A stretch of DNA of 63,511 nt, filler included, from 8 parts of 8 records of this genome joined end to end with filler, not necessarily neighbours in it, one strand, 5' to 3'; positions 8,532 through 57,996 are shown, counted from the first letter of the whole stretch. The notes: a model not told the origin generated them from the letters alone. A program made the numbers and translations.

Positions 8532-8631
8532 NNNNNNNNNNNNNNNNNNNNNNNNNNNNNNNNNNNNNNNNNNNNTTAATTAATTAANNNNNNNNNNNNN
8601 NNNNNNNNNNNNNNNNNNNNNNNNNNNNNNN
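8532..8631. other. Artificial contig spacer (N44-TTAATTAATTAA-N44)
   Basis: Identical 100-nt N-flanked six-frame stop linker, repeated seven times in the window. Confidence 0.98.
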
Positions 8632-15210: not shown

Positions 15211-15310
15211 NNNNNNNNNNNNNNNNNNNNNNNNNNNNNNNNNNNNNNNNNNNNTTAATTAATTAANNNNNNNNNNNNNNNNNNNNNNNNNNNNNNNNNN
15301 NNNNNNNNNN
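15211..15310. other. Artificial contig spacer
   Basis: N44-TTAATTAATTAA-N44. Confidence 0.98.
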
Positions 15311-19629: not shown

Positions 19630-20254
19630 TGGAAAAAATTATTGTAATTGGGGGCGGTGGGAATGCAAAAGTGGTTATTTCGATTTTAAAAAAATTGAAT
19701 AAATATAAAATTGTCGGCTATACGGATAATGATAACAGAGGCACTATTTTAGGAGTAAAATACCTGGGGAATGATGATATATTAGAAAAATTTTATAATG
19801 AGGGGGTTAGACATGCTGTAATTGGTATTGGGCAGTTAAAATCAACTAAAATACGGAGAAAGATTTTGAAAAAATTACAAGTATAGGTTACGATTGTCCT
19901 TGTATTATATCCCCTGATTCTATAATTAATGAAGCTGTAGATATCGGTGATGGTACAGTTATTATGGATGGTGTTATAGTTAATTCTGGAACAAAAATCG
20001 GAAAATTTTGCATAATTAATACCAGAGGATCAATTGATCATGATTGCAATATTGGAGACTTTACTCATGTTGCAGGTGGGGTTATATTAGCCGGTGGCGT
20101 TGTAATTGGAAATGATGTTTTTATTGGATTAGGTGTTAATGTTATACAATATAAGCAAATAGTTGATAATTCAATAATTGGCGCTGGTTCAACGGTAATA
20201 GATTCTATTGGCAAAGCAGGAACCTATGTTGGTAATCCAGTGAGATTAGTTTAA
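19629..20254 (+). CDS. Hexapeptide-repeat sugar acetyltransferase, NeuD/PglD/PerB type (frameshift near 19870)
   Basis: IIVIGGGGNAKVV N-terminus; second frame INTRGSIDHDCNIG...IGAGSTV...VGNP. Confidence 0.85.
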
Positions 20255-20285
20255 ATGGTAAAAAAAATAGTATATCGGCTTGCTG

Positions 20286-21646
20286 ATGACAAAAAGAATT
20301 ATTAACAGCATAAATAATTATTTTAAAGGACATGAAAGAACTGTTAAAGCAAAAAAAATATAATTGCCTCATTTGGATTAAAAGGTATAAGTATTTTAAT
20401 TTCTTTTTTATATGTACCATTATTGCTCAATTATCTTGATAAAGAAAGATATGGCATTTGGCTAACTTTAACATCAGTAATTACCTGGTTTAATTTTTTT
20501 GATTTTGGATTAGGCTCTGGTTTAAGAAATAAATTTGCAGAAGCAAAAGCCATAAACAATACAAAATTGGCAAAAGAATATGTTAGCACAACTTATGCAA
20601 TTTTAATAGTAGTTTTTGCAATTATTTTAAGTCTATTTTATCTTATTAATCCATTTTTAAATTGGGCAAAAATACTTAATACAAATCCAATTTTTATTCA
20701 TGAATTATCGCTTTTAGCAATCATTGTTTTTACCTTTTTTGTATTTAGATTTATTGCAAAATTAATAGGACAAATATTGTTGGCTGACCAAAAACCGGCA
20801 GTTAATAATAGTTTTATGCCAATATCTAATATTATTTGTTTACTATTTATTATTGTTTTAATAAAGGTTGACAATAATGGATCTTTAATATTAGCTGGTA
20901 GCATTTTAAGTATTGTTCCGGTTATTGTTTTGCTGATAGCGTCGATTATCTTATTTTCATCCCAATATAAGGAATATACACCCTCAATAAAAAATATTAA
21001 TTTAAAGCATACAAAAGACTTATTAGGTTTGGGTGTTAAATTTTTTATTATACATATTTCGACATTAGTTATATATCAATCGCAGAATTTATTAATTACA
21101 CACATATGTGGCCCCGAAGAGGTTACTGTTTATAATATCGCTTATAAATATTTTAATTTATTTATTATGGTATTTAGTATTATACTTACGCCTATATGGT
21201 CTGCTACTACAGAAGCTTTTGCAATAAAAGACTATAATTGGATAAAAAACATAATGAGGCGACTGCGACAGATAGGTATATTATTAGTAATCGGTGTTAT
21301 TATTGCTTTTATTTTATCAAATTATTTTTACAGATTTTGGATTGGTGATCAAATAACTATTCCGTTTTCAATATCAGGTTCTGTGGCAATAGTTACGATA
21401 GTATATTTACTTTTTTCTCCATATGTATCATTTCTTAATGGTGTTAGCAAGATAAAGTTGAATATAATCTTGGTAATATTTCAAACTTTAATATATATAC
21501 CTATTGCCATTTATTTAGGTAAAAAAATTGGTGTTGCAGGTATAGTATTATCAGGTTTGATTTGTGAATTACCGCTTAGAATAACCCAACCCCTTCAGTA
21601 TAAAAAAATAATTAGTGGAAAAGCAAAGGGAATATGGAATCAATAA
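20286..21646 (+). CDS. Polysaccharide flippase (Wzx/MATE-like); frameshift in the A8 run 20351-20358
   Basis: Reconstructed N-terminus GHERTVKAKKNIIASFGLKGISILISFLYVPLLLNYL, then YGIWLTLTS...FDFGLGSGLRN; many TM segments. Confidence 0.85.
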
Positions 21647-22566
21647 TGGACTATAGTAATCCTACAATATCAGTAATTACTTTAACAAGAAATCGGGCAA
21701 AGATTTTACCAAGAGCAGTTAATAGTGTTTTAAATCAAACTTATAAAAATTTTGAATATATCATTATAGATGGAGCTTCAACAGATGGTACTGAAGAAGT
21801 ATTAAGAAAATATAATGATAAAAGAATCAAATATATAAAACAAGATGTGAATTTGTGGCCACCATTATCAATTGACCAGGCATTTGAAATTGCAGAAGGT
21901 CAGTACATTACTTTTTTAGATGATGATGATGAATATTTACCTGAAAAACTGGAAAAACAATTAGCAAAAATACAAAATTCCCCTCAAAATGTTGGTATGG
22001 TTTATTGTTGGATGGACTATTATGATAATAACACTAATAAATTGCTTAGAATGAACCATGAAACAAGAAGTGGAAATATTTATTATGACTTGATTGAAAA
22101 AGCTGTTGTGGAGGTACTCCGACATATCTATTTAAAAGAGAAGCTTTTGCGAAGGTGGGGGTGGAGTAAAACATTAAAACACCTCTGATTGGGAAATGAT
22201 TTGTAGATTTAGTCAAAAATACGAAATAGATGTAATACCTGAAGTTTTAGTTAAAGTTTATATAAATCATGGCCATTTAAGGCAGTCAGATTTTGTATTT
22301 GATAGAAAAAAATTTTGGATAGAATTAATTTTCATAATCATTTTCTTACTGAATTTAAAGATGGATTTAATTTATTTCCCCAAAAGCAAGTTTATCATTT
22401 AATTAGTCTTATGCGATATTATTCTATGCTCGGTGAACTAAGTAAGACATTTTATTATGCTTTTAATATATTATATCTCGAACCTTTTTCTGTACATAAT
22501 TATAATAAAATAATTAAGAGCACAATAAGATCATTTGGGCGGAAAATAGTAAATAATATTCATTGA
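21646..22566 (+). CDS. Glycosyltransferase family 2 (several frameshifts between about 22100 and 22320)
   Basis: ISVITLTRNR, SVLNQTY.NFEYIIIDGASTDGT, FLDDDD; downstream pieces in other frames continue the protein. Confidence 0.8.
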
Positions 22567-23256
22567 AATTTGTGATTACTATGTATCAAATTATTGCATT
22601 ATTTTTATTAGCTACAAGTTTTTTGGGTAAATTTAAAAAGGTTTTCCCTTTTTTTGTTGCATTATTTTTTGGTTTCAATATCTACTCTGATTTGTGGGCT
22701 ATTAAAATTGGAGGGATGTATTTAGAAATATGCTATTTAATATCTTTTGTATTTCTTATTAAAGCAATAATACTTTTTAAAAATGATATGCGCAATAATA
22801 TCGCAAAAATACTCTTTTACATGGTGATTATTAATTTTATTTATATAGTTATACGTTGGCTTCTTGATGATTTAGATGTGATTTCTGTTTACAAGTTTTC
22901 TCGCACTTTAATTTTGCAGTCATATATTTTTGTTGCTTTTATTTATTGTATGCGATATGACTATAATAAATTAATTTATTATTTTTTTATAGGATCATGG
23001 ATCCACATTATTGTAGTAATATTAAATACTTTCAAAGAAGATCTTGGTTTTTATAGTTTTCATAATGCAACATTAGGAATTGCTATTGGATATATCGTTG
23101 CATATAACTTAATATTTTTAAAAAATGTAAATACATTTTATTTTAAAAAATTATTTTATTATTTAGGTTTTATGAGCATTTTTCTACCGTTATTAGGGAT
23201 GGGGCGAAGTGCAATAATTGGTAGCTTGATTCCTTTTATTCTCTACAATAAAAAAA
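22563..23256 (+). CDS. Polytopic membrane protein, O-antigen polymerase/ligase-like (3' truncated)
   Basis: Very hydrophobic and AT-rich; GRSA motif; position in a wzx/GT locus. Confidence 0.6.
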
Positions 23257-23356
23257 NNNNNNNNNNNNNNNNNNNNNNNNNNNNNNNNNNNNNNNNNNNN
23301 TTAATTAATTAANNNNNNNNNNNNNNNNNNNNNNNNNNNNNNNNNNNNNNNNNNNN
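23257..23356. other. Artificial contig spacer
   Basis: N44-TTAATTAATTAA-N44. Confidence 0.98.
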
Positions 23357-24868
23357 AGGAATTAAACCATTTGCTTTACTTTTTATATAACTTAAATTAT
23401 CATCTAACTTTATTTTGATGAACTGTAAATCTGTGATAACTGTATTTACGGCCATTATTTGTCTAGCAATATGAGCTTCTTTTACATGTAGCCAGCCCAT
23501 TTTTCCAACACCAGAACCTTTACAAGTAAAAAGTAAGTCTCCTCTGTATGCTATTGATTTAGGATTATCAGTCCACCGACCGATAATAACTTTTTCATTT
23601 TGCAAATGACTTGCTCCTGTAATATACGGTAAACCTATTTCCTGTTCATCAGAGTATTCTCTTGGTGTTAAATCTTGACCAGATTTCAAAGTAATCACGT
23701 CCCCCAACCTGCACCAAACCCACCCATCAGGCAACACATAAGGAATTTCCTCTGCTGTAATTTCAGGCAAAGGTTTTTCCTTTTTGATTTTTTTCTCTTT
23801 TATGAGCTGTTCTTTCTCGGCTTTTATTTTTTCTAAAAGAACGGATGCCGATTCGATACCCCCTCTGCCTGCGGCATCTCCCCCTAAAGGGTGAGAAAGG
23901 CGCCAATGAGAAGTCAATTTGCCCTGTACTGCTAATTGCAGAATGCTTTCACGTAGTTTTTTAACGGCATCTTTGGTATTGAAAAAAGCTTTAAAGTGCT
24001 GTTGTAAAAATGCCCATTCTCCATTTGCTTCTTTGGCTTCTGCCAGTTGCTTTAAAGCAGAAGTGACAAAATCTTCTTTTAGCTTAACACGCTCTTTGGT
24101 TTGGGCTTCAAGTTCTTCTACTTCCTTAAACAATTGGTTGACTGTGGCAACAATGGCGCGTTGTTCTTCGAGGGGAGGGATTGGAATAATCCCACTTAAA
24201 AGATTGCTATCATTTATTGCAGGGTAAGCTACACCTTTCATACAGCTTTCTACATAATCTATAAAAAAACGAGAACGGAGAACGTGATAAAGAAATAATT
24301 CAGAATAGCCTGCTACTGGTTTTAGGATTGCAAAAGCAGTACTGGCGATAGCTTCATTTTCAAATTCCCTATTGATAATTGCTATATTCAATAAGTATGG
24401 TCTTACTGTTGAGTAAATTACACAACCCTTTTGAATAATCTTTCTGGCCCGAGATGGAGCCTCTGCTGCTTGAATTATATTTAGAGAATTATTGATAACT
24501 CCCAAGGAATTGTCAATTGATGCCACATCAATATATTCAAATTCATTATCTGGTTTTTTTTGTCCAAAATTATGTGTCAATGTGCCAAGCCTAATCCATT
24601 CCCAAGTTTTAGGCAACACAAAAGGAATTTCATCCTCCGAAATTTCAGGTAGCACCTTCTCCTTTTTTATCTTCTTCTCCTTAACCAATTGCTCTTTCTC
24701 GGCCTTTATCTTTTCCAATAAAACCGAGGCAGGCTCCACATTAGGATTTTGCTCACGCCATTTTTGCGTCAACTTACCCTGAATAGCCAATTGCAATATC
24801 AGCCCTTTAAGTTCTTGAGCGTTTTTAGGGTGTATGGTGAGTTCTTTAAAATGTTCTAGTAGTTGCAT
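23357..24868 (-). CDS. hsdS: Type I R-M specificity subunit (3' truncated)
   Basis: Two conserved repeats ILQLA(I/V)QGKL...ASVLLEKIKAEK...IP..LP..W.W.RLG flanking TRDs; IPPLEEQ. Confidence 0.93.
23859..23896. repeat. REP-like palindromic element inserted in frame in hsdS
   Basis: GC-rich CCCCCTCTGCCTGCGGCATCTCCCCCTAAAGGGTGAGA with two hairpins; encodes SHPLGGDAAGRGG, absent from the paralogous first repeat. Confidence 0.65.
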
Positions 24869-26336: not shown

Positions 26337-27539
26337 TTAATGATTTTCAAATTCCTTTTTAATTAATAGAAGCTCCTCTCTATGTTTTATAAATGCGCTT
26401 TCCACTTTTTCAATAATAGGAATATATTCTTCCAACATTGCGTCTAATTTCAGTTCTTGCTCAGCTCCCCAATTTTCCATCATTTTCTCTAAAGCCCAAT
26501 TTTTTGTCTCCACAAAATGACACTTCCATTTTTCTCCTATACTTTTACTAGCACCATCCACAGATCCGATAACTTCAACAAGTTTTTCATCATACTTTAA
26601 AAATCCTTTAGGAGGAGTAATTACCGTTCGGAATGTAAACTTTTTAGCCGTATGAAAATCATACTCAAACAAAAAAGCCTCTTTTTCCGGCCAACCATTA
26701 TACATGTTATATTTAAGTATAAACTCCTTTGTTTTAGGCGTATAAAAACGCACAAAACCCTTATTATTAGATCCAATTCCCCAACCTCTATCCTTGACCT
26801 TTTCTTTAAGCAGATTGGTGAAATTTACAATGAAATCGGGTTTGTTTTCCCAAACAAAATCAAATAATTCTTTATGATTCTTGTATAATTCAACAGCCCA
26901 TTGGTTGACATTATCATTTTTCATTAATACCTGCTTTAATGTTGTTATGTAATCTTGTATATAGGTCAATATGGTGTCATTCATCCTATGCTGCCTAACA
27001 TCAATAATAACCTCCAAAATTTCTATAATCTGGGAATATCCTAAATTGATGTATATATCATGAATAGAAGCCTTTTCGCCATAAGGAGTAAGAAATACAA
27101 ATGATTTTTCATGTTCAGGAAAATGCTTTTCTACAGTATCTTTGTATTTCTTGAGTTGATGCTTACTTTCCTTCGCCCAAATTTTATTTTCTATGCTTAC
27201 TACAAAAGTTTTGGTAATAATTAACAAGTCAATGTTATTCCATTCTCGTCTTACTTCGACATCTTTTGTGTCAATTTTGGCAAGTTCAAATATTGAATTA
27301 CCTCCACTTCTGCTATCCAATAAAACTTCCTTTAAAAATTGAGTAAGGAAAAGGTCGTTAAGTTCATGAGATTCATTCGGATTAAGTAACCATGCTAAGA
27401 AATTAGAATGCCTTAATTCGTTATTACTCATACCTAATATCTTGAAGATATTGGGTTTATTAATATCTAACAATAAACGATCATAATACGGATCTGCCAA
27501 AAGGTTAGCATATAATCTTTTTAAGTTAGCCTCTTCCAT
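26337..27539 (-). CDS. PD-(D/E)XK superfamily nuclease (PDDEXK_4-like) with an extra C-terminal domain
   Basis: ELRHSNFLAWLLNP, VRREWNNIDLLI, IENKI, QLKKY, FVFLTP. Confidence 0.85.
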   Translation of the reverse strand: MEEANLKRLYANLLADPYYDRLLLDINKPNIFKILGMSNNELRHSNFLAWLLNPNESHELNDLFLTQFLKEVLLDSRSGGNSIFELAKIDTKDVEVRREWNNIDLLIITKTFVVSIENKIWAKESKHQLKKYKDTVEKHFPEHEKSFVFLTPYGEKASIHDIYINLGYSQIIEILEVIIDVRQHRMNDTILTYIQDYITTLKQVLMKNDNVNQWAVELYKNHKELFDFVWENKPDFIVNFTNLLKEKVKDRGWGIGSNNKGFVRFYTPKTKEFILKYNMYNGWPEKEAFLFEYDFHTAKKFTFRTVITPPKGFLKYDEKLVEVIGSVDGASKSIGEKWKCHFVETKNWALEKMMENWGAEQELKLDAMLEEYIPIIEKVESAFIKHREELLLIKKEFENH

Positions 27540-29904
27540 TATGCGATTCTATAAATTTCGTTTTCCAATTCTTTTATCGCTTGTTCAAAATCTTTCTTTT
27601 TACCAAATGCCCGTACAAGCTCAACAGGCGATCCTATTTCATTTAAGGGCTTCACACCTAAAACAGAACCTTTTTCTATAGAAACAATGCCTTCGTCTTC
27701 ATATTTATCGAGCAAACTATTTAACACATTTTGAGCCTTTTCGCTGTATTTGCCAAAATAGTTTCGTTTCCGAACATTATTTGCGCGTTCTTTCCGCGTT
27801 AATGCCGGTTGGTCGAACGCCACATGGCAAACTAAATCGAATGCATCCATGTCTTTGCTTACCTCTTCACGAAGGGCTTCCAAAAGTATTCCTTGTTCTG
27901 CTAATTCAGCTATTATTTCCTCTTTTTTATCTGAGTTTTTCCATTTTTGGATAAAAGTATCTAACGAGACAAATTCTTTCTTTATATTATTATAGTGTAG
28001 TCTTTCAACGATTCGGTTATTAACTTGCCATCCTTACCATAATACTGCACACGTTCGTGGGCAACACGTACCGGTATATTGTTCACATAATACTTTCGGG
28101 GTTCTGTTTCTTGTTCATCATCCCAGCCCACATCGGGCGGATTAACTTCTGAACCTGAAGCTTGTACTGTTTCACCGTCAGTTTCCGGAGCATCATCTTC
28201 CGGCGGCACAACATGCTCTCCCGGTTCAGGATTGTAAATTTGAACAGGTTCTCCGTCAAAATCAGGATCGGCAAATAAGTTGGTTGCCTGCCTGAAGTCC
28301 ATTATTGAAAAATAAACCTTTCCTTCCGTCTCGCGAATACGGGTACCACGTCCAATAATCTGCTTAAACTCGGTCATCGAGGCGATGTTGGCTTCCAATA
28401 CCACTACCTTAACCATTTTAGTATCGATACCGGTGGTTAACATTTTCGATGTTGTTGCAATTACCGGGAACCGTTCTTCCACATCAGTAAAATTGTCGAA
28501 TTCCTGCTTCCCGACTTCATCGTCGCCGGTTATTTTAACCACGTAGTTCGAATGTTTGGCAACCAAATCGGCATTTTCGTTAATTAAAGCCATTCGCATA
28601 CGATTGGCATGGTCTATATCAACACAAAACACGATGGTTTTAGAGAACCTTCCGGTAGCTTTAAGGTATTCGCTTACCTTTTGTGCAACAAGCTGTGTAC
28701 GTTCATCTATTGCCAGTTTTCGGTCGTAATCTCTCAGGTTATAAATGCGGTCGACAATTTCATTACCATATTTATCGCGCATCCCGGCTGTTGGTCGCCA
28801 ACCATCATCAACTGTAGTTGAAATGCGTATAACTTTATAAGGCGCCAAAAAACCATCCTCAATACCTTGTTTTAGTGAGTAAGTATAAACAGGTTCGCCA
28901 AAGTATGCAATATTAGAAACGTCGCGGGTTTCTTTAGGAGTTGCGGTCATACCGATTTGCGTAGCAGACGAGAAGTAATCCAAAACCTCTCGCCAGGCCG
29001 ATGCTTCCGAAGCACTTCCCCGGTGACACTCATCAATTACAACCAGATCAAAAAAATCAGGACTAAATTCTTTGTAAGCATTTTTCCACTCTTCGTTCCC
29101 GGTTAACCCCTGGTAAAGGGCAAAATATATTTGGTACGACTTATCTATCTTTCTATGCTTTATAATGTGCATAATATCGTTACCAAAGGGCGAGAAATCT
29201 CCGTTTTTGGTTTGCGTTAACAAGGCATTTCGATCGGCAAGAAAAAGAATGCGTTTTTTTACCCCGGCTTTCCACAACCTCCAGATAATATTAAAAGCGG
29301 TGTAAGTTTTACCGGTACCGGTTGCCATAACCAACAAAATCCGGTCTTGCTGCCGGGCAATTGCTTCTACCGTTCTGTTTATTGCATTTTGCTGATAATA
29401 CCTTGGACTCATACCACTATCATCGGTATAATATTCCTGCTCAACAACCTTCCTGGCTTCTGTCTCTTCAATTCTGGCAAAGCTTAAATATTTACGCCAC
29501 AATTCACCTGGCGAAGGAAACGATTCTAAACCAACCTCCTTTTCTATTTCGCCGGAATTGACTGTTCTATCATGAAAAACAAACGAATCTCCATTGGAAG
29601 TAAACACAAACGGAATGTGAAGAATTTCGGCATATTCCAAAGCCTGTTGCATACCATCGCCAACCTTATGATTGTTGTCTTTAGCTTCAACAATGGCAAT
29701 TGGGACATTGGGTTTATAATAAAGTATGTAATCTGCCCTTTTCTGTCTTCCCCGGGTATGCACCCTGCCTTGTACTATAATACGACCATCGGTGAACGAT
29801 ACTTCTTCGCGTATTTGCTTTTTAATATTCCAACCAGCTTTTTCAATAGCCGGAGTAATATACTTCGTGCAGATGTCTCTTTCTGATAGTTGTTTTTTGT
29901 TCAT
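27539..29904 (-). CDS. hsdR: Type I restriction subunit R, EcoAI/EcoEI-like (frameshift near 27990)
   Basis: LSERDIC.KYITPA, ADYIL..AIVEAK nuclease; MATGTGKT, DECHRG, GMTATP, FKQIIGRGTR; C-terminal DAFDLVCHVAFDQPALTRKERA. Confidence 0.95.
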
Positions 29905-35045: not shown

Positions 35046-35145
35046 NNNNNNNNNNNNNNNNNNNNNNNNNNNNNNNNNNNNNNNNNNNNTTAATTAATTA
35101 ANNNNNNNNNNNNNNNNNNNNNNNNNNNNNNNNNNNNNNNNNNNN
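35046..35145. other. Artificial contig spacer
   Basis: N44-TTAATTAATTAA-N44. Confidence 0.98.
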
Positions 35146-43289: not shown

Positions 43290-43786
43290 ATGAAAAATCT
43301 GAATATAAACAAATGGATTGCCATAGTAGGTCTAATCTTGGGCAGTATAATTATTGGGAAAATTGTTGGTGAAGATGAGAGCCAAAGAACAGGAATAAGT
43401 ATTCTTATCTTTATTGGTGGTTTGTGGATAACTGAATTAGTCCCTTTAGCGATAACGGCTTTCTTGGTTCCTATACTTGCTTACTTTACACATATTTTTA
43501 GTGCCAAGGAGGCTCTTTCACATTTTTCTAATCCGATTATCTATGTTTTTGTAGGTGGTTTCGCTCTTGCTGCTGTGTTACGAGAACATGGCATTGATAA
43601 GTGGATGGCAAGCAAAATTCTAGTACTTACAAAGGGCAATATGTGGATGGCAGTTATTTCATTTTTTGCAACAACTAGTTTTTTGTCTATGTGGATGAGC
43701 AATACTGCAACTACTGCAATGTTACTGCCAATAGCTATGTCCTTGGTAAGCAAAAGATATCCACGTGCCAGAATATTCATGATTTT
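43290..43786 (+). CDS. SLC13/DASS family anion transporter (3' truncated)
   Basis: LWITELVPLAITA, GGFALA, LSMWMSNTATTAMLLP. Confidence 0.9.
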
Positions 43787-43886
43787 NNNNNNNNNNNNNN
43801 NNNNNNNNNNNNNNNNNNNNNNNNNNNNNNTTAATTAATTAANNNNNNNNNNNNNNNNNNNNNNNNNNNNNNNNNNNNNNNNNNNN
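43787..43886. other. Artificial contig spacer
   Basis: N44-TTAATTAATTAA-N44. Confidence 0.98.
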
Positions 43887-43976
43887 CTGGTTGAAATAAA
43901 CCACCGAAACATAGCCACATTCGAAAGCAATTTCTTTAATGGGCAGCTGAATATCACGTAGCAGTATTAGTTTAGG
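43887..43976 (-). pseudogene. Remnant of an AraC-family HTH C-terminus
   Basis: Minus frame PKLILLRDIQLPIKEIAFECGYVSVVYFNQ, preceded by an in-frame stop. Confidence 0.5.
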
Positions 43977-44127
43977 TTAAATCTTTTTGATTCTTTCAGA
44001 CAGTTCTAATCCATAAATTTCATCTGATTTCGAAAAATTTCGTAACTTATATAAGCAAAAGAAACTGCTTTTCAGATAATTAGTGCTGAATCAACGATAA
44101 TAATTATTTAAAAACTTAAAGCAGGTT

Positions 44128-44697
44128 ATGGAAAAGATAAAACTCTTTCTTGCTTCCTCCAACGAATTAAAATATGAACGAGAACGGTTCGAGATTGAAA
44201 TATACCGAAAATGCAAATCCTGGTTTGATAAAGGTATTTTTCTCCATCTCGATATATGGGAAGATATGACGGCTCGCATGTCACAAACTGGTTCACAAAG
44301 TGAATACGATAAATTTGTGAAGGATGCCGACATTTTTATTTTTCTTGCATATTCCAAAGTTGGTATGTATACCGAAGAGGAGTTTGAGCATGCTTTTGGT
44401 CAGTTCACATCCACACAAAAGCCTTTCATTTTTACATATTTTAAAACACTTCCGAATAATGCAGAAGATAGCTTAGCTAACTTTAAAAAGAAACTAAGCG
44501 AACTGAAGCATTTTTATGCATATTTCAACGACGTTAATGATTTATGGAACCAGTTTAATAAAGAATTAGAGCGATTGGAAGTTGTTGGATTCACTGAAAA
44601 CAAAAAGTCAGAGAAAAATACCAGGGATACCATTATCTCGCAAACTGCCGAGAAGATTTACAATATTGACAAAATTGACAATGCAAAATTTGATTGA
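44128..44697 (+). CDS. TIR-like / DUF4062-like protein with a C-terminal 17-aa repeat motif
   Basis: IKLFLASSNELKYER, DIWED, SQSEYD...DADIFIFL...KVGMYTEEEFEHA...PFIFTYFK; ends QTAEKIYNIDKIDNAKFD. Confidence 0.65.
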   Translation: MEKIKLFLASSNELKYERERFEIEIYRKCKSWFDKGIFLHLDIWEDMTARMSQTGSQSEYDKFVKDADIFIFLAYSKVGMYTEEEFEHAFGQFTSTQKPFIFTYFKTLPNNAEDSLANFKKKLSELKHFYAYFNDVNDLWNQFNKELERLEVVGFTENKKSEKNTRDTIISQTAEKIYNIDKIDNAKFD

Positions 44698-44703
44698 TAA
44701 GTC

Positions 44704-46050
44704 ATGGCAGATACAATAAATACAGAAAGTGACAATAACATTTTAATACAGGGTGTTACCGGAAGTTCTATTACTGTAAATATTAATGGGCAAACACAGG
44801 AAATTGAAAAAAGATTAGATGTATTACAGGCTTTAATGGAGCAAGTGGCTGCCAAATCGATTCAATCTGCTGATAAGATATATAACATCGGCAGTATTAC
44901 AAATGCAAATTTTGGATATTTGGTTGATCAGGCAGGATGGAATAAATTATTGCCATCCGAATTATCAGAAAATCTTTTGGAAGGCAAACGTTGGATTGAA
45001 TGCCTGCAACTGGAATTACAGAATAAACAAAAAATATCGGTTGGTAATAAGCCCTGGAATATTTTTCAAAATTATGGCTGGTTAATAGAAACTTTTTTGC
45101 AGAAAATGGGAACTGCTACCGGGCAGGAAAAAAATCTTCGTCGCCTTTCGTTTATGACAGAAGCCTGGTACAGCTCTCTTCGGTACCTTTGTTATATTCA
45201 AATTGCGCAAATTCTCCAGATGGAAAACAAACCAAAGCTGGGCATCATTTCCGACTTTGTTCAAATGGAAGGCAACAGATATGTAGATTTTGATTTTATC
45301 AGTCTTCTACTTACTTCTTCCGACATAGTAGGCCCAAATAGTTTTCTAATAGAAATTAATAAGTTTATTGAGGAACTAACAGATACTGAATCGGCATTAT
45401 ATGGAACGGCTCTGTTTTTAGAAGAGCAGCGAAACAAACTAATGACAAACAGTATAGCCGAAGATGAAAAATTGTCTGGTCTGCTTGATGAATACTTAAC
45501 AGCTCTTGTTTATTGGCTGCGTAAGATTTCTTTTCTGTGCAAATACAGGATGGTTTCCATAAAGGAAATAAATTTGAATTACCGTCTGGGATCAGCAAAA
45601 AACTTTGTGCATCTCTATGGCGAACTACACGGTTTATATAGCGAGCTTGGTTTATCTGATGAAGATTACAATACCAAATCTATTGAAAACTTTTTTACCT
45701 ATAACAAAAGTATACTGTTATTTAAGGGCCGTGATATTTCTTCGGGCATGGACGGATTAAAAAATCAAGATACCTATCTGTCACTTTCTCCACTTATTAT
45801 CGACCAAAGTGTTTATGCCGGAAAGCCAACACAAACTCCCGAAATATTTTATTATACCGGATACGATAAAGCCAAACGGCAGTATAACTATTCTCAATAC
45901 AAGAACGAACTGGCATTTGGTGAGAAAAATAAAATTAGCTCCAACAAGGCATTAAAAGTAATGGCACAAAATAATATGCAGCCTCGATTTGACGAATTGT
46001 TTGAACAACTGGACGATGTTTTTAAACTCCTTAAAATTAAACAAGCATGA
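44704..46050 (+). CDS. Uncharacterised 448-aa protein with N-terminal Asn/Ile-rich motifs (candidate adaptor)
   Basis: Clean ORF, 6 bp after the previous gene and overlapping the next (ATGA); carries NNILIQGVTGSSITVNING and QSADKIYNIGSITNANF. Confidence 0.8.
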   Translation: MADTINTESDNNILIQGVTGSSITVNINGQTQEIEKRLDVLQALMEQVAAKSIQSADKIYNIGSITNANFGYLVDQAGWNKLLPSELSENLLEGKRWIECLQLELQNKQKISVGNKPWNIFQNYGWLIETFLQKMGTATGQEKNLRRLSFMTEAWYSSLRYLCYIQIAQILQMENKPKLGIISDFVQMEGNRYVDFDFISLLLTSSDIVGPNSFLIEINKFIEELTDTESALYGTALFLEEQRNKLMTNSIAEDEKLSGLLDEYLTALVYWLRKISFLCKYRMVSIKEINLNYRLGSAKNFVHLYGELHGLYSELGLSDEDYNTKSIENFFTYNKSILLFKGRDISSGMDGLKNQDTYLSLSPLIIDQSVYAGKPTQTPEIFYYTGYDKAKRQYNYSQYKNELAFGEKNKISSNKALKVMAQNNMQPRFDELFEQLDDVFKLLKIKQA

Positions 46051-47738
46051 GCCAGTCAAAATCACCATTCAAGTTTCTCGACTCGTATCAGCAGTCTGAT
46101 GCAGATGTGTTTTTTGGCCGCGATAAAGAAACGGAAAATCTGTACAATGCCTTAAGTGGAGTAAAACTACTGATGGTTTACGGTCCTTCCGGAGCAGGAA
46201 AAACAAGCCTTATTGAATGTGGCCTGAGAAACCAGTTTTCTGATGCCGATTGGTTTGCTCTTACTATTCGAAGGGGAACAGATATAAATGTATCTGTTTT
46301 TGCAGCCATTAACGATGCTCTGAATGAGAAGATACAGATTAATCAGGAAACCAAAATGCCGGCTGATTCGAATATGGAATTTGGCGATGCCATTGAGAAT
46401 TTATTTGCCGAACGTTACCAACCGGTGTACCTGCTGTTCGATCAGTTTGAAGAATTGTTGATTTCAGGAGAAAAAGAGGAAAAGATAAAATTCTTTACCC
46501 TGATTAATAAATTGATTAGAAACAAAGTTCCATGCCGGATTTTAATCATTATGCGGGAAGAATTTATCGGGCACTTATCGGAGTTCGAAATACTCTGTCC
46601 AAGTATCTTCCAACATCGTTTCAGAGTAGAGAAGATGGGGCGTAAAAATGTGGAGGAAGTTATTTTTAAAATTTTGGAAGCTCGCAGGTATCAGGCTTTT
46701 TTTGATGTAGATGATATTAAAAAGATTATAGAGAGCATATTGGCGAAACTGCCCGATAAAAGAAAAGAAATAGAACTGGCACATGTACAAGTGTTTTTGG
46801 AAGAACTGTGGGATAGGGCGCAAAACAGAAAAAAGGAAGACAGTAAACCGGTACTAAGTTATAAGCTGATAAAAAAGACAGATAATCTGGAAGGTATTCT
46901 GGAGAGTTTCTTAAAAAAACAAATTACCGAACTCGAAAGCATTTACCGAAAAGGTGTGCCGTTGGAATTACTGGCTACATTAATTACAGAACGTTTTACC
47001 AAGCTTCAGTTAAGCGAATTGGAAATAAAGGCCGAGTTAGAACGTAAAGAAATAATAACTGAAAAACCGGTAACCAAACTTTTAAACGAGTTGGTTGAAC
47101 CACGCCGTATTTTACGCACCATAAAAATTGAGAACGAAACAAAGTACGAATTAAGCCATGATGTTTTGGCTCTGGTTGTAGGGCAAAACCTTACCGAAGA
47201 AATGAAAATGCGGGAGAAAGCAGGCGATATCTATAACATGTACAGTGAAAGACAAGGATTGTTTTCACAAGATGATATTGATTACCTGCGGCCTTTTCAA
47301 CAATATTTGGCGTATCCTCAGGATTTGCTGGCCAGGATAGACGAAAGTATTACAGCTATAAAACAGAGGGACAAGCAGGAAAAGGTTAAAACAAAAAAAC
47401 GTTTACGCACTTTATACGCCCTTTCAAGCGCTGCTTTAATTGCTCTTGTGGTTGCTATATTCTTTTATTTTTCGGCAATTAGTGCTAAAGAATCGGCTAT
47501 TGCTGAAAGAAATAAAGCAAATAAGGCTTTGGCTGACTTTAAAAAGGCACAAGCTGCCAAAGATGCACTTGTGTTTTATGATTTAGAAAGCCGGGCCAAT
47601 TTAATAATTGAGGTTGGAGGTTCTCCTATTGATATTGTTGGTAAAATGGATAAACTCTGTTCTGAGCACATAGATAGTGCTCGTTGGCAAACTAAAATAA
47701 AATTGATTAAAGAAAGTCTCAAAAATAATGAAAGATGA
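46047..47738 (+). CDS. nSTAND1-type P-loop NTPase with a C-terminal transmembrane helix
   Basis: SPFKFLDSY...FFGRDKE, Walker A GPSGAGKTS, Walker B LLFDQFEEL, IMREEF, YELSHD; TM LYALSSAALIALVVAIFFYF. Confidence 0.85.
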   Translation: MSQSKSPFKFLDSYQQSDADVFFGRDKETENLYNALSGVKLLMVYGPSGAGKTSLIECGLRNQFSDADWFALTIRRGTDINVSVFAAINDALNEKIQINQETKMPADSNMEFGDAIENLFAERYQPVYLLFDQFEELLISGEKEEKIKFFTLINKLIRNKVPCRILIIMREEFIGHLSEFEILCPSIFQHRFRVEKMGRKNVEEVIFKILEARRYQAFFDVDDIKKIIESILAKLPDKRKEIELAHVQVFLEELWDRAQNRKKEDSKPVLSYKLIKKTDNLEGILESFLKKQITELESIYRKGVPLELLATLITERFTKLQLSELEIKAELERKEIITEKPVTKLLNELVEPRRILRTIKIENETKYELSHDVLALVVGQNLTEEMKMREKAGDIYNMYSERQGLFSQDDIDYLRPFQQYLAYPQDLLARIDESITAIKQRDKQEKVKTKKRLRTLYALSSAALIALVVAIFFYFSAISAKESAIAERNKANKALADFKKAQAAKDALVFYDLESRANLIIEVGGSPIDIVGKMDKLCSEHIDSARWQTKIKLIKESLKNNER

Positions 47739-50323
47739 CACGGAATATTCTAATACTCGTTTGTATGATTGTGTTTGTTACAGTTGCAGCACAAGGGCAA
47801 AGCAATTACACCGAAGCTATAAAGCAAGGCGATAAGGCACGCGATAAAGGAGAATATGAATTAGCAATAAATAAATACTTTGCTGCGGAGGCATTTGCAC
47901 CCTCGCAAAAAAAGAATGTAAAATTAAAAGTAGATACTGTTTTTAATTTAATAAATAAACTAAAGGTAGATGCCGAGAATGCCTTAATTATTGCCAAAGA
48001 ACAAAAAGCAGAAGCTGAAAAACAAACCCAAAAAGCACAGAGCCTTACACTTACAGCTTTTGCGATAGAGCAATTCGATAAAAATCCAACTTTATCCATT
48101 CGTTTGGCAGAATTGGCATGGAAAAGAGCTCCAAGCTTCCCACCTGCCCTTCCGTTACAACGAATTGTCTCTAAAGCATTCTATAAATCTTTGGAGAATA
48201 AGAATATTTTTTATTTTAAAAATTTTGTGCACGGATATGACGTAGCACATGTAGGATTTTCACCTGATGGTAAAAAAATTGTGACGGCTTCTTATCTTGA
48301 AGGAACTATTGTAATATGGGATGTTTTATCTGGTAACAAGATTCATAAATTCACAGGGCACATGGCTGAAGTAAACCAAGCTGAATTTTCACCTGATGGT
48401 AAAAGGATTGTGACGGCTTCTGATGATCATACGGCTAAATTATTGGATACTGAACTGGGAAATGAGTTAACTACATTAATTGGACATAAAGAAGCGGTTG
48501 TTAGCGCTAAATTTTCATTCGATGGAAAAAGAATTGTGACTGCTTCTTGGGATAATACAGCAAAGATCTGGGATACTGAAACTGGGGCTGAACTCAACAA
48601 TCTCAAAGGACATAGCGATATTGTATGGAATGCAAAATTTTCGCCTGATGGGAAAAAGATAGTGACTAGTTCTGACGATAAGACAGCAAAACTATGGAGT
48701 GTTGAATCCGGTAAGGAATTGCATACATTTTTTGGGCATGAAGGATGTATCTGGAGTGTGGCATTTTCTCCTGCATGCATAGATGACCCTAACGGTGGAG
48801 GGAAGATAGTGACAGCTTCTGAGGATGGAACCGTGAGAATCTGGGATGCAAAATCAGGGAAAGTAATCCATAAACTAGCAGGACATAAAGATGATGTTTA
48901 CGACGTTGAATTTTCTCCCAGTGGGAAAAAAATTGTGACGGTGTCAAAGGATAATACAGCAAGGATCTGGGATACAGAATTTGGACAAGAACTCTATATG
49001 TTAAAGGGGCATGTGGACTTTGTTTTTAGTGCAAAATTCTCACCTGATGGAAAAAAAATATTAACTGCTTCTGAAGATGGAACGGCAAAACTATGGGATG
49101 CAGAATCAGGGAAAGAGTTACTTGCTTTAAAGGGGCATGAGGCCTCTCTAACCTGCATAGAGTTTTCATCTGATGGAAAAAAGATTGCAACTTCTTCTTG
49201 GGATAATACGGTGAAAATATGGACTGTGGATTCAAAGAATGTAATTCATACACTGAGGCATGAAGGTTTTGTTAACAACTCATTATTTTCACCAGATGGG
49301 GAAAAGATTGTAACTGCTTCCTATGATAAAACTACAAAGTTATGGGAAGTCGAATCAGGCACAGAGCTCTTTACTCTTTCAGGAAATATGGATAATGTGT
49401 ATGCTGAATTTTCATCAGATGGGAAAACGCTTCTGACTGTTTCGGGAGAAACAAGGCTATGGGATGCAGAATCTGGAATCTGCCTACGTAAGCTTATGGG
49501 GCATAAATCCTATATTGGAAGTGCTGTTTTTTCACCTAATGGAAAAAAGATTGTAACTGCATCTGATGATATAACAGCAAAGGTCTGGGATACTGAATCA
49601 GGTGCAGAACTCCATACTTTAAAAGGACATGAGTCTAGGATTAGTAATTCGATATTTTCACCTGCTGGGAACAAGATTGTAACTTCCTCCTGGGATAATA
49701 CAGCAAAGATATGGGATGTGGAATCAGGTGCAGAACTCCAAACTTTAAAAGGACATAAGTCTTGGATTAGTAATTCAGTATTTTCATCGGATGGAAACAA
49801 GGTTGTGACTTCCTCCTTGGATAATACAGCAAAGATATGGGATACAGATTCAGGGAAAGAACTCTATACGTTATTCCATGAAGGTGATGTATATAAACCA
49901 GAGTTCTCTCCTGATGGGAAAAAGATTATTACTTCCAGCTTGGGAGTAGTAATGGTTTGGGATGTAGAATCTGGCAATGAGATAACTCAACTAAAAGGAC
50001 CTGGGATTTATGTCATTAATCCTAAATTTTCACCTGACGGGAAAAAAATTGTGACAGGAGCTGGTGAAGGTATAGCAGTTATTTGGGAAACAGATTCAGG
50101 GAAAGAAATAATTAGACTCAATATGCACGAGGACATGATTTGTAACACCGCATTTTCTCCCGATGGAAAAAAGATAGTCACAGCTTCCTTGGATAAAACT
50201 GCAAAAATATGGCTTACCCCGGAAGGAATTATAGATTGGTTGGGCAAGCAAAAGAATATTTACAAGCTAACCAATGAAGACCTGAAAGAGCTTGGTATTG
50301 ACTTTATTGATTTAAAAGAATAG
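47735..50323 (+). CDS. Exported WD40 protein (16 repeats) with signal peptide and an N-terminal helical/TPR-like region
   Basis: MTRNILILVCMIVFVTVAAQGQS; 16 repeats of GH...FSPDGKKIVTAS.D.TAKIWD. Confidence 0.92.
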   Translation: MTRNILILVCMIVFVTVAAQGQSNYTEAIKQGDKARDKGEYELAINKYFAAEAFAPSQKKNVKLKVDTVFNLINKLKVDAENALIIAKEQKAEAEKQTQKAQSLTLTAFAIEQFDKNPTLSIRLAELAWKRAPSFPPALPLQRIVSKAFYKSLENKNIFYFKNFVHGYDVAHVGFSPDGKKIVTASYLEGTIVIWDVLSGNKIHKFTGHMAEVNQAEFSPDGKRIVTASDDHTAKLLDTELGNELTTLIGHKEAVVSAKFSFDGKRIVTASWDNTAKIWDTETGAELNNLKGHSDIVWNAKFSPDGKKIVTSSDDKTAKLWSVESGKELHTFFGHEGCIWSVAFSPACIDDPNGGGKIVTASEDGTVRIWDAKSGKVIHKLAGHKDDVYDVEFSPSGKKIVTVSKDNTARIWDTEFGQELYMLKGHVDFVFSAKFSPDGKKILTASEDGTAKLWDAESGKELLALKGHEASLTCIEFSSDGKKIATSSWDNTVKIWTVDSKNVIHTLRHEGFVNNSLFSPDGEKIVTASYDKTTKLWEVESGTELFTLSGNMDNVYAEFSSDGKTLLTVSGETRLWDAESGICLRKLMGHKSYIGSAVFSPNGKKIVTASDDITAKVWDTESGAELHTLKGHESRISNSIFSPAGNKIVTSSWDNTAKIWDVESGAELQTLKGHKSWISNSVFSSDGNKVVTSSLDNTAKIWDTDSGKELYTLFHEGDVYKPEFSPDGKKIITSSLGVVMVWDVESGNEITQLKGPGIYVINPKFSPDGKKIVTGAGEGIAVIWETDSGKEIIRLNMHEDMICNTAFSPDGKKIVTASLDKTAKIWLTPEGIIDWLGKQKNIYKLTNEDLKELGIDFIDLKE

Positions 50324-50328
50324 TAAAA

Positions 50329-50811
50329 ATGGATTCAGAAAAATTTAAAGAATATCTTGAAAAAAGATATTACGACCAGCTAAATTACTATAGAAATTCA
50401 TCGGGCAAGAACCGGAAAAAATATAAGAGTTTTCAATGGGTATTAATTATTCTTTCTGCTATTACACCTGTGCTGGCCGCAATGCATGGCGAGAAACTTA
50501 ATACTCAGTTTGTTGTTGTAATTATTTCAGCCATTGTTGCCATATTAACGTCCGGCCTTAAAACGTTCAAATACCAGGAATTGTGGGCCAGTTATCGCGC
50601 CACTTATGAGCAACTAAAACCAGAAATATATTATTATAATTATAATGTTGGCCCTTATGGTGAACCTGAAGTTAATAAGGAATCTTTGTTTATTTCCAGA
50701 GTAGAAGCAATTTTGGATAAAGAGCACCAGGGATGGCCGCCTGCCCAAAAGCTTCGTGAGGACAAAGATAACCCCGATACAATTTTGGGTGAAGATAGAA
50801 AGCAGCCTTGA
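50329..50811 (+). CDS. DUF4231 / SLATT-like two-TM protein
   Basis: YLEKRYYDQLNYY...KYKSFQ, two TM helices, KYQELWASYRATYEQLK.E, FISRVEAIL..EH..W. Confidence 0.8.
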   Translation: MDSEKFKEYLEKRYYDQLNYYRNSSGKNRKKYKSFQWVLIILSAITPVLAAMHGEKLNTQFVVVIISAIVAILTSGLKTFKYQELWASYRATYEQLKPEIYYYNYNVGPYGEPEVNKESLFISRVEAILDKEHQGWPPAQKLREDKDNPDTILGEDRKQP

Positions 50812-50860
50812 GCTCTAAAATGACTTTCTCGTGCTTCGTCCCTATTAATCAACGATTTTT

Positions 50861-50960
50861 NNNNNNNNNNNNNNNNNNNNNNNNNNNNNNNNNNNNNNNN
50901 NNNNTTAATTAATTAANNNNNNNNNNNNNNNNNNNNNNNNNNNNNNNNNNNNNNNNNNNN
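50861..50960. other. Artificial contig spacer
   Basis: N44-TTAATTAATTAA-N44. Confidence 0.98.
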
Positions 50961-57896: not shown

Positions 57897-57996
57897 NNNN
57901 NNNNNNNNNNNNNNNNNNNNNNNNNNNNNNNNNNNNNNNNTTAATTAATTAANNNNNNNNNNNNNNNNNNNNNNNNNNNNNNNNNNNNNNNNNNNN
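57897..57996. other. Artificial contig spacer
   Basis: N44-TTAATTAATTAA-N44. Confidence 0.98.

Follow-up and report, generated by a model that had tools for sequence, protein, structure and literature searches.

What kind of system is encoded by five tightly packed genes whose predicted products combine a TIR-like protein, a 448-residue protein of no named family, a membrane-attached STAND NTPase, an exported WD40-repeat protein and a small SLATT membrane protein? The question is raised by positions 44,128 to 50,811 of the window, by which we mean the whole stretch of DNA analysed (63,511 nucleotides, filler included). On balance we think it probable that these genes, here called p1 to p5 in their order, constitute one operon that would encode a disassembled, membrane-spanning, NLR-like (STAND) conflict system in a Bacteroidota genome. 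A first-pass annotation had proposed an envelope-sensing NLR-like pathway that signals in trans. Comparison with related loci largely supports that model and corrects it in four respects: the core is modular, p2 is a carrier, p1 is DUF4062-like, and the SLATT protein is optional. The five genes, with lengths in amino acids (aa), are as follows.

44128-44697, + strand: p1, 189 aa, divergent DUF4062/TIR-like (flavodoxin-like) domain at about aa 1-155
44704-46050, + strand: p2, 448 aa, predicted constant effector-carrier module
46047-47738, + strand: p3, 563 aa, nSTAND1 NTPase with one predicted transmembrane (TM) helix
47735-50323, + strand: p4, 862 aa, signal-like N-terminus, putative docking module and WD40 repeats
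50329-50811, + strand: p5, 160 aa, SLATT_1/DUF4231 protein with two TM helices

All five are intact, co-oriented open reading frames (ORFs) that start with ATG, and their spacings of 6, -4, -4 and 5 bp agree exactly with those first reported. They probably form one operon. Terminator-like sites number 2, against 4.3 expected by chance, and a promoter scan likewise did not rise above chance, the sigma-70 consensus used being ill suited to Bacteroidota.

The evidence that carries the reading begins with the pairing of p2 and p3. We surveyed relatives using one genome per species, which yielded 43 loci with p2 homologues, nearly all in Bacteroidota and mainly in Chitinophagaceae, Saprospiraceae and Flavobacteriaceae. 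In 42 of the 43, the start of a p3 homologue comes directly after the p2 gene, often with the 4-bp overlap seen here; at the single exception (L030, in the L numbering of the related loci), the contig stops about 200 bp past p2. The pairing extends to a distant clade, about 25-30% identical to p2, in which an N-terminal CHAT domain with a conserved His/Cys dyad is fused to a p2-like module. An alignment of these CHAT-carrying relatives was used to retrieve 80 metagenome loci. A full-length match was present in 66, and in 59 of those the sequence continued for more than 600 nt downstream; an nSTAND1-like gene starts within 700 nt in 53 of the 59. Altogether, these comparisons suggest that the conserved core is two genes, the p2 module and the nSTAND1 NTPase, and that the other parts are swappable. 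As such, the earlier picture of a fixed five-gene system gives way to a two-gene core with interchangeable effector heads, sensors and accessories: co-occurrence holds for the p2-p3 pair but not for the SLATT gene.

The NTPase itself is clearly assigned. In Pfam, p3 matches nSTAND1 (PF20703) over aa 7-374 with 134.7 bits against a cut-off of 27.1, and it carries a Walker A motif (GPSGAGKTS, aa 46-54) and a Walker B motif (LLFDQFEE, aa 129-136), with K52, D132, E135 and E136 invariant in 18 orthologues. The nSTAND1 domain begins at residue 7, in line with the earlier claim that this STAND protein has no N-terminal effector of its own. No PADLOC Avs or NLR model matches p3; its best PADLOC match is mad8 (E 1.9e-4).

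The p2 family is large. By word-indexed search, p2 has 339 relatives at E ≤ 1e-3; the 120 best of these fall into length classes of about 447, 630-650 and 550-566 aa. A hidden Markov model search of 1.84 billion representatives found 472 clusters (50% identity) at E ≤ 1e-3 and 67 at E ≤ 1e-30. Cultured strains with relatives include Hufsiella arboris HMF7647, Arenibacter certesii DSM 19833, Ulvibacterium marinum and Lutibacter citreus. Two loci hold two or three paralogous p2-nSTAND1 systems side by side, L010 (1014-19984) with Lcl_C, OmpA and WD40 sensor ends and L020 (1724-13995) with WD40 and FGE-sulfatase ends. Five others (L034, L037, L039, L041 and L042) are decayed copies in which the p2 gene, the nSTAND1 gene or both are split into several short ORFs; the p2 fragment and the nSTAND1 gene of L037 are separated by a PDC-S02-type gene.

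What p2 contributes is best seen at its N-terminus. Among the 44 family members scanned there, 23 carry CHAT, 3 TIR_2 (one of them weak) and 1 EAD11, 16 show nothing recognisable, and the remaining member, P0258, is a 1282-aa STAND protein that has only the first 80 residues of p2. Of the 43 loci, 9 have a p1-like domain joined to p2 in one chain and 8 encode it as a protein of its own; for EAD11, the counts are 4 fused and 4 as a small gene apart, and 2 loci carry a fused true TIR_2 domain. EAD11 (PF19964) is absent from the five proteins described here and occurs in 8 related loci in the place of p1. Furthermore, p1 matches the N-terminal part of a 651-aa fused relative (P0001) at 40% identity (E 2e-37). 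Therefore, p1 and p2 correspond to two halves of what is one protein in many relatives. We conclude from these sequence comparisons that the p2 N-terminus appears to be a swap site for effector heads and that p2 is a predicted effector-carrying subunit. The 448-residue protein had earlier been cast as a relay; its tie to the STAND gene stands, and the idea of a neutral relay is abandoned in view of the fusions to CHAT, TIR, DUF4062-like or EAD11 heads.

The body of p2 resembles little that is named. No family match was found in Pfam, NCBIfam, PADLOC or PHROGs, a profile search against Protein Data Bank (PDB) sequences gave no match at E ≤ 1, and a protein-atlas search returned unnamed clusters and one EAD11 cluster only. 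The AlphaFold2 (AF2) model (predicted local distance difference test, pLDDT, 72.4; predicted template modelling score, pTM, 0.82) places a small beta/helix N-domain at about aa 10-72, a helical domain at about 67-280 and a beta-rich domain at about 281-400. Compared with known structures by VIA-align, the model reaches a best Z of 6.6.

Two identities were considered for p2. VIA-align rows for HEPN proteins (Roquin, HI0074, Csm6, RnlA, HepS and sacsin) reach Z 4-6.6, a range common for helical bundles and too weak for an assignment, and no conserved R-x4-6-H motif was seen on reading the helical domain. EACC1, the "constant component" of Kaur et al., was rejected as an identity for p2, since it is a small single-TM domain paired with a caspase. 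In L022 (4180-5259), where EAD11 is fused to p2, and in L037 (3068-4066), where p2 survives as a broken piece, the gene immediately before the p2 homologue encodes a putative Uma2-family endonuclease, possibly a further effector head that is brought in in trans.

If the effector head and its carrier are encoded separately, how would they find each other? A short motif shared by the two proteins offers a candidate answer.

44641..44694, + strand: C-terminal tail of p1, aa 172-189, 18 residues, QTAEKIYNIDKIDNAKFD, proposed docking or templating peptide
44863..44916, + strand: motif in the p2 N-domain mirrored by the p1 tail, aa 54-71, QSADKIYNIGSITNANFG

The tail and the p2 motif are identical at 11 of 18 positions, a match that none of 2000 shuffles equalled. 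The correspondence recurs in 9 of 9 loci, where 10-14 of the 18 positions agree and, for each locus, 0 of 2000 shuffles reach the observed value. All eight stand-alone p1 sequences (this one and seven orthologues) end in the nearly invariant 18-residue tail, and the linker before it varies. The same tail closes two stand-alone EAD11 proteins (L011 and L028); therefore, the tail tracks separation from p2 and not the type of head. On the receiving side, the N-domain that holds the motif is conserved across the p2 family, and in P0258 the same N-domain sits directly on a STAND NTPase. This is the layout described for the motifs known as bacterial amyloid signalling sequences (BASS), in which one short motif is found at the effector C-terminus and in the N-terminal region of the next gene's product, with p2 rather than an NLR as receiver. 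In the AF2 models, p1 residues 158-189 are disordered (pLDDT below 50) and the p2 motif lies within a folded small domain (pLDDT in the 80s). Consequently, strand complementation would be as good a reading as amyloid-type pairing. In either case, we propose that the p1 tail acts as a docking or templating peptide for the p2 N-domain.

On the opposite side of the NTPase, the comparisons point to the membrane and beyond.

47430..47486, + strand: predicted TM helix of p3, aa 462-480 (Kyte-Doolittle, 19-aa window, score 2.41)
47801..48214, + strand: N-terminal module of p4, about aa 23-160, proposed dock for the p3 tail

The single hydrophobic helix of p3 follows the NTPase and is itself followed by 83 residues. 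Of the p3 orthologues of at least 500 aa, 34 of 36 have a single TM helix at about aa 445-520. All p3 orthologues listed carry more Lys/Arg before the helix than after it (3-9 against 1-5). A helix of this kind is also present in 29 of the 38 nSTAND1 proteins of at least 580 aa that are partnered with the CHAT-fused modules. The predicted topology is thus N-in/C-out, with the NTPase inside and the C-terminus outside, which agrees with the original assignment of p3 as a membrane protein.

What follows the helix falls into two forms. Long-tailed p3 orthologues continue after the TM helix into FGE-sulfatase, Lcl_C, pYEATS, LRR, WD40 or TPR domains. Short-tailed ones, of which 14 are complete, extend at most 136 aa past the TM helix and have a following gene in the locus, are followed in 12 of 14 cases by a co-directional gene (gap -4 to +18) whose product has a signal-like start; the two exceptions, L034 and L037, are loci where p2 itself is broken. 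At our locus, this position is taken by p4. Its first 22 residues are signal-like and end in ...VAAQGQ, and the hydrophobic segments of the p4 family end in A/G-Q, which fits the Q-rule for signal peptidase I substrates of Bacteroidetes (PMC5837995, PMC10653852). The export of the WD40 protein, proposed at first sight of the sequence, is therefore retained as a prediction. Beyond the N-terminal module, 14 WD40 stretches (E 2.4e-136, about aa 165-830) are enough for two propellers; in PADLOC, p4 has a generic or weak match to HEAT-ARM_XIII.

How might an exported sensor address the NTPase? The N-terminal module of p4 has 21 blastp matches, of which 20 are separate proteins, up to four per locus, that carry WD40, LRR, OmpA or no known domain. 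The remaining match, in L014, is a fusion: in a single 1323-aa chain, an nSTAND1 domain is followed by one TM helix, by the latter half of the p4 module and by WD40 repeats, with p4 aa 87-160 aligning after the TM helix. From this fused form and the strict co-occurrence, we infer that the p4 N-terminal module docks on the p3 tail. For one STAND protein targeted by a diversity-generating retroelement, a sensor domain has been suggested to lie in the periplasm (10.1101/2023.09.22.558884). In the literature searched, itself available in part, we found no description of separately exported docking sensors for STAND proteins.

The nature of the head p1 had been given as a TIR-like effector. An alignment of 19 family members shows F7, S10, S11, E13, R18, W44, E45, Q57, Y81 and E85 to be invariant, and Y81-T82 and E85 are found in 19 of 19. 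The AF2 model (pLDDT 71.4, pTM 0.70) is a five-stranded alpha/beta fold with a disordered tail, and VIA-align against 48,161 chains ranks two TIR domains at the top, 4c6t_A (Z 11.9, root-mean-square deviation 3.1, 134 residues aligned) and 7fcl_A (Z 10.8). The p1 sequence reaches the gathering score of neither TIR (PF13676 or PF01582) nor DUF4062 (PF13271). Work on DUF4062 describes a motif set of F11, an acidic-SYT region with E87, and Q/W/E residues (10.64898/2026.06.25.731849), and F7, Y81-T82...E85, W44-E45 and Q57 of p1 fit it, the comparison being with the description and not an alignment to a proven DUF4062 domain. Three preprints from 2026 report DUF4062 to be a TIR-like, Glu-dependent NADase in phage defence and in human TEP1 (10.64898/2026.05.01.722283, 10.64898/2026.09.04.749371, 10.64898/2026.06.25.731849); the DUF4062 domains of human NWD1, NWD2 and NPHP3 showed no NADase activity in vitro (10.64898/2026.05.01.722283). 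We suggest that p1 is better named a divergent DUF4062/NIR-like domain, with E85 as candidate catalytic Glu, and by analogy with the recent DUF4062 work it is a predicted NAD+ hydrolase. Of the original label, a putative TIR-like fold and the invariant Glu are retained, and a TIR profile match is not.

The last gene, p5, is the SLATT two-TM protein that it was first taken for. It exceeds the Pfam and NCBIfam cut-offs (DUF4231 PF14015, 78.7 bits; SLATT_1 PF18181, 54.4 bits; NF033634, 113.6 bits against a cut-off of 41). Its two TM helices span aa 34-52 and aa 59-77, and its matches to the PADLOC models 2TM Effector (3.6e-7) and PycTM are weak. Its orthologues among the related loci, in L005 and L006, close the array in both. 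A search of five of the genomes added one more, 55% identical, in Hufsiella arboris (L049). There, a gap of 21 bp separates it from a preceding pair of another kind, which encodes a TIR_2 protein and an nSTAND1-TM-propeller protein. SLATT genes are known to accompany nucleotide-related effectors (PMC7159879). Since SLATT recurs in L005, L006 and L049, it appears to be an accessory of TIR-type nSTAND1 systems, and p5 is a predicted membrane effector and an optional accessory. The Hufsiella arboris locus is a second, analogous three-gene system in its own right:

L049, 7166-13099 (G004 contig C6): TIR_2 protein, 462 aa; nSTAND1 protein, 1335 aa, TM helix at aa 571-589 and a propeller/TPR region; SLATT_1 protein, 168 aa

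The 462-aa TIR protein was considered as a p2 relative and rejected, with an hhalign probability of 0.2% against the p2 profile; its C-terminal part shows no relation to p2 in that comparison.

Taken together, these parts suggest the following mechanism. The sensor p4 would be exported via Sec and signal peptidase I, as predicted, and its two WD40 propellers would sense outside the cytoplasm, the N-terminal module probably being held on the short external tail of p3. Binding of an outside ligand would be transmitted by the single-pass p3 into nucleotide exchange and oligomerisation inside, a step modelled on established STAND/NLR behaviour. The obligate cytoplasmic partner of p3 would be p2, for which the pairing of the genes is shown and physical binding has weak model support. 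Attached to the p2 N-domain by its 18-residue tail, as the fusions and the paired motif imply, would be p1, the predicted NAD+ hydrolase. Clustering of p2-p1 on the oligomer would then activate the NADase, to which p5 may add membrane damage, possibly gated by a nucleotide product. The expected outcome is growth arrest or death of the cell that senses phage or another invader at its envelope.

Several results weigh against this account. The genes are the sole occupants of their contig, with 241 bp before the first gene and 49 bp after the last, and the sequence is a chain of eight contigs linked through seven artificial joins, each N44-TTAATTAATTAA-N44 (a script counted 14 N-runs of 44). Therefore, flanking genes across the joins are no true neighbours and provide no context.

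43887..50860, strand not assigned: contig of the five genes, 6,974 bp, artificial joins on both sides
8532-8631, 15211-15310, 23257-23356, 35046-35145, 43787-43886, 50861-50960 and 57897-57996, strand not assigned: artificial joins, N44-TTAATTAATTAA-N44

The apparent neighbours across the joins are a truncated CitMHS gene upstream and ORFs without assignment downstream; ORFs are cut at joins, the CitMHS fragment at 43290-43838 being an example. Further genes of the set could lie past the contig ends, and a 7-kb contig hides any such members together with the true context. In the related loci, most neighbours are housekeeping genes, and the PADLOC counts given below stand without a baseline.

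Among the contrary results are also some on the core. Six of the 59 distant loci lack a nearby nSTAND1 gene, and a p2-nSTAND1 fusion, sought among longer proteins in a search that is itself weak evidence, was not found. Complex prediction for p3(1-445) with p2 scored 0.52, against 0.00 for the best of three controls, with contact agreement of at least 43% and partner pLDDT of at least 68; the verdict is weak support. Of 78 solved complexes, 51 attain this mark, as do 2 of 108 mismatched pairs; scores of at most 0.60 hold only 5 of the 78 solved complexes, together with all 4 passing mismatches. The p2 model has no Foldseek match at E ≤ 0.001. The topology comes from a hydropathy scan and the positive-inside rule and not from a trained predictor, two of the 36 longer p3 orthologues (L015 and L018) lack the TM helix, and so do 9 of 38 partners in the CHAT clade. 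The rarity of p5, with orthologues in 2 of the 43 loci, counts in the same direction.

The remaining objections concern p1. Against Pfam, it has no TIR match at E ≤ 0.1 and nothing above threshold, NPHP3 (E 0.033) being the sole hit. Scanned singly, the 19 family members match TIR_2 in 10, DUF4062 in 10 and NPHP3 in 9 cases, all sub-threshold, the best E values being 3.2e-5 for TIR_2 and 8e-4 for DUF4062. Comparison with two true TIR_2 domains by hhalign found no relation (probability 2.3%), and a search of PDB sequences found nothing relevant, only chance Musashi rows. Many unrelated flavodoxin-like folds reach Z of about 10 in VIA-align, and the top Foldseek rows are generic flavodoxins and Ras, not TIR. 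The equivalence of E85 to the catalytic Glu is drawn from its motif setting and not from an alignment.

Would the system have to respond to phage at all? The same architecture could serve transmembrane signalling or programmed death that reads envelope or extracellular cues, such as kin or non-kin contact, periplasmic toxins of competitors, predators, cell-wall damage, or developmental signals in filamentous or gliding Bacteroidota. We consider this the less probable reading, though one to be taken seriously. The sensors are predicted to lie outside the cytoplasm, away from the intracellular phage proteins detected by the studied Avs/bNACHT receptors, and their types are lectin-like or ligand-binding (FGE-sulfatase, Lcl_C, LRR, with RicinB nearby). 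In addition, such systems have been tied to a multicellular habit (PMC7159879). Cell-wall genes follow or precede several arrays: GH19 (lysozyme/chitinase-like) genes after those of L002 (8460-9068) and L007 (13789-15401), Peptidase_M15_3 and LysM in L009 (14002-15927), and PG_binding_1 upstream in L014 (7985-9265), with the RicinB lectin also near arrays; these genes may encode alternative effectors or point to a trigger at the envelope.

The gene neighbourhoods speak on both sides of this question. A scan against PADLOC covered 141 of 333 ORFs (up to five nearest per locus, minus nine longer than 900 aa) in 40 loci; 27 of the 141 matched at E ≤ 1e-8 and 13 at E ≤ 1e-20, the latter in 9 of 40 loci, so that a strong PADLOC neighbour is the minority case. 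Against a role apart from phage stand the neighbours of defence type in some loci. In Hufsiella arboris (L008, 7157-8513), an AbiEi/AbiEii toxin-antitoxin pair (PADLOC E 2.9e-81 and 3.5e-76) precedes the p1 orthologue by about 900 bp; L019 has PDC-M26 together with a DUF262-type gene, and L027 has an HNH-type effector. The side-by-side paralogues with different sensors look like receptor diversification. The effector repertoire of CHAT, TIR and DUF4062-like heads with SLATT belongs to death-type conflict systems and, by analogy with them, is the strongest argument for such a role here. The two readings differ in the trigger only, and the data do not separate them.

A different possibility places the sensor in the cytoplasm. 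The hydrophobic segments would then be anchors or tethers, and the system would be membrane-attached but otherwise an ordinary cytosolic Avs-type STAND receptor. WD40, LRR and TPR repeats are indeed the usual cytosolic STAND sensors (10.64898/2026.01.04.697583), and both the hydropathy basis of the topology and the relatives without a TM helix leave room for it. On the other hand, every orthologue listed has more Lys/Arg on the NTPase side of its helix, and the separate sensors open with a short n-region and an h-region and carry a conserved A/G-Q site, as exported Bacteroidota proteins typically do. Moreover, the fused L014 protein has its single TM helix between NTPase and WD40 repeats, and OmpA, Lcl_C and FGE-sulfatase, which occupy the sensor position in relatives, are typical extracytoplasmic domains. 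We therefore regard a cytoplasmic sensor as improbable.

Least probable of all, in our view, is that the system consists of p1-p4 only, or p2-p3 only, with SLATT an independent neighbour and p1 a non-catalytic scaffold: the scarcity of SLATT among the loci, the 363-bp gap before the SLATT gene in L006, the sub-threshold family assignment of p1 and the inactive human DUF4062 domains would fit, but only 5 bp precede p5 at this locus, all located p5 homologues of at least 54% identity end nSTAND1 arrays with a TIR or TIR-like protein or a cut upstream end, and E85 and the other motif residues are invariant throughout the p1 family.

Two observations elsewhere in the window concern other subjects. 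A separate contig (23357-35045) carries type I restriction-modification parts, all on the - strand: an HsdS-like gene (23309-24868), an HsdR-like gene (27982-29904) and a PDDEXK_4 nuclease gene (26337-27539). Positions 20001-24000 have a low GC content (0.275-0.279, compared with about 0.37 elsewhere) and Polysacc_synt and Glycos_transf_2 genes, with DegT and an epimerase nearby, and look like an O-antigen or capsule locus.

How does the proposed membrane-spanning conflict system relate to those already described? No named system matches the gene set in PADLOC-DB v2 (2023 version) or in the literature searched, as had been suspected from the outset; the supplementary tables of PMC7159879 and PMC8195603 may list these neighbourhoods. 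As in Avs/bNACHT receptors and in NLR/APAF-1, a STAND P-loop NTPase stands between an effector and repeat sensors (WD40, LRR, TPR, FGE-sulfatase), and ligand-induced oligomerisation leading to a death effector would be expected here. Those receptors are single cytosolic chains, whereas effector, carrier, NTPase and sensor are four polypeptides here, of which the NTPase would cross the membrane and the sensor would lie outside.

Closest by family are the nSTAND1/EAD systems of Kaur, Burroughs, Iyer and Aravind (PMC7159879, PMC8195603). The p3 protein belongs to their nSTAND1 family and relatives of our system use EAD11; in both sets, effector heads are swapped among close relatives and SLATT occurs with nucleotide-type effectors. 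The main texts of the two papers, as far as available, hold no 448-aa module, obligate pairing with nSTAND1, tail motif or exported docking sensors, which the supplementary tables may list, and the name EAD11 is absent from these main texts.

The output parts have relatives of their own. With the DUF4062/NIR NADase systems (Swarozyc, Vulcan, Vesta, Evangelion and PsAvs2), p1 shares weak DUF4062, NPHP3 and TIR_2 similarity, an invariant Glu in a Y-T-acidic stretch and, putatively, a TIR-like fold; it differs in lying below every Pfam threshold, in being a free-standing 189-aa protein, and in its link to the NTPase through p2. In human NWD1 and TEP1, DUF4062 occurs together with a NACHT NTPase and WD40 repeats, the same three kinds of part as found here. 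The paired tail recalls the Bell/NLR pairs with BASS (10.1101/2020.01.06.895854), where a short N/G-rich, beta-prone motif likewise stands at the effector C-terminus and near the N-terminus of the next product, and where TIR2 and CHAT effectors and fused "all-in-one" forms are also known. The likeness is one of layout, and there are differences: the receiver is p2 and not an NLR (though P0258 has the N-domain on a STAND protein), and the p2 motif is folded in its model. Finally, p5 is of the same family as the SLATT 2TM effectors of CBASS, Pycsar and retron/DRT-type systems and shares their two TM helices; those systems differ from ours, in which there is no cyclase or SMODS partner and the sole candidate signal generator is the TIR-like p1.

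To our knowledge, the bacterial STAND/NLR-type receptors studied so far each consist of one cytosolic protein that detects phage proteins within the cell. Toll-like receptors, in turn, sense through repeats on the outside, cross the membrane once and end in a TIR-type output on the inside. The likeness to our system is an analogy only, with no homology of the whole: here, the relay would be a STAND ATPase and the parts are separate chains. A more far-reaching version of the idea, which we offer as speculation and think rather unlikely to hold in full, is that of a Toll-like-receptor counterpart driven by an NLR engine. Exported sensors of interchangeable type (WD40, LRR, lectin-like) would clip onto the outer tail of the STAND ATPase for envelope detection before entry, and effectors would be switched on via a self-matching beta motif, amyloid-like or strand-complementing, that would represent a new Bacteroidota family of signalling motifs.

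If the proposed system is real, the STAND engine would be separable into an individually encoded sensor, switch, carrier and effector. It would also span the membrane and read signals outside the cytoplasm, and its effector heads and sensors would be exchangeable through simple docking modules. With its 472 clusters, p2 represents a widespread domain family without annotation. The short paired motif is open to a direct test of recruitment or templating, and relatives of the system are present in cultured strains.

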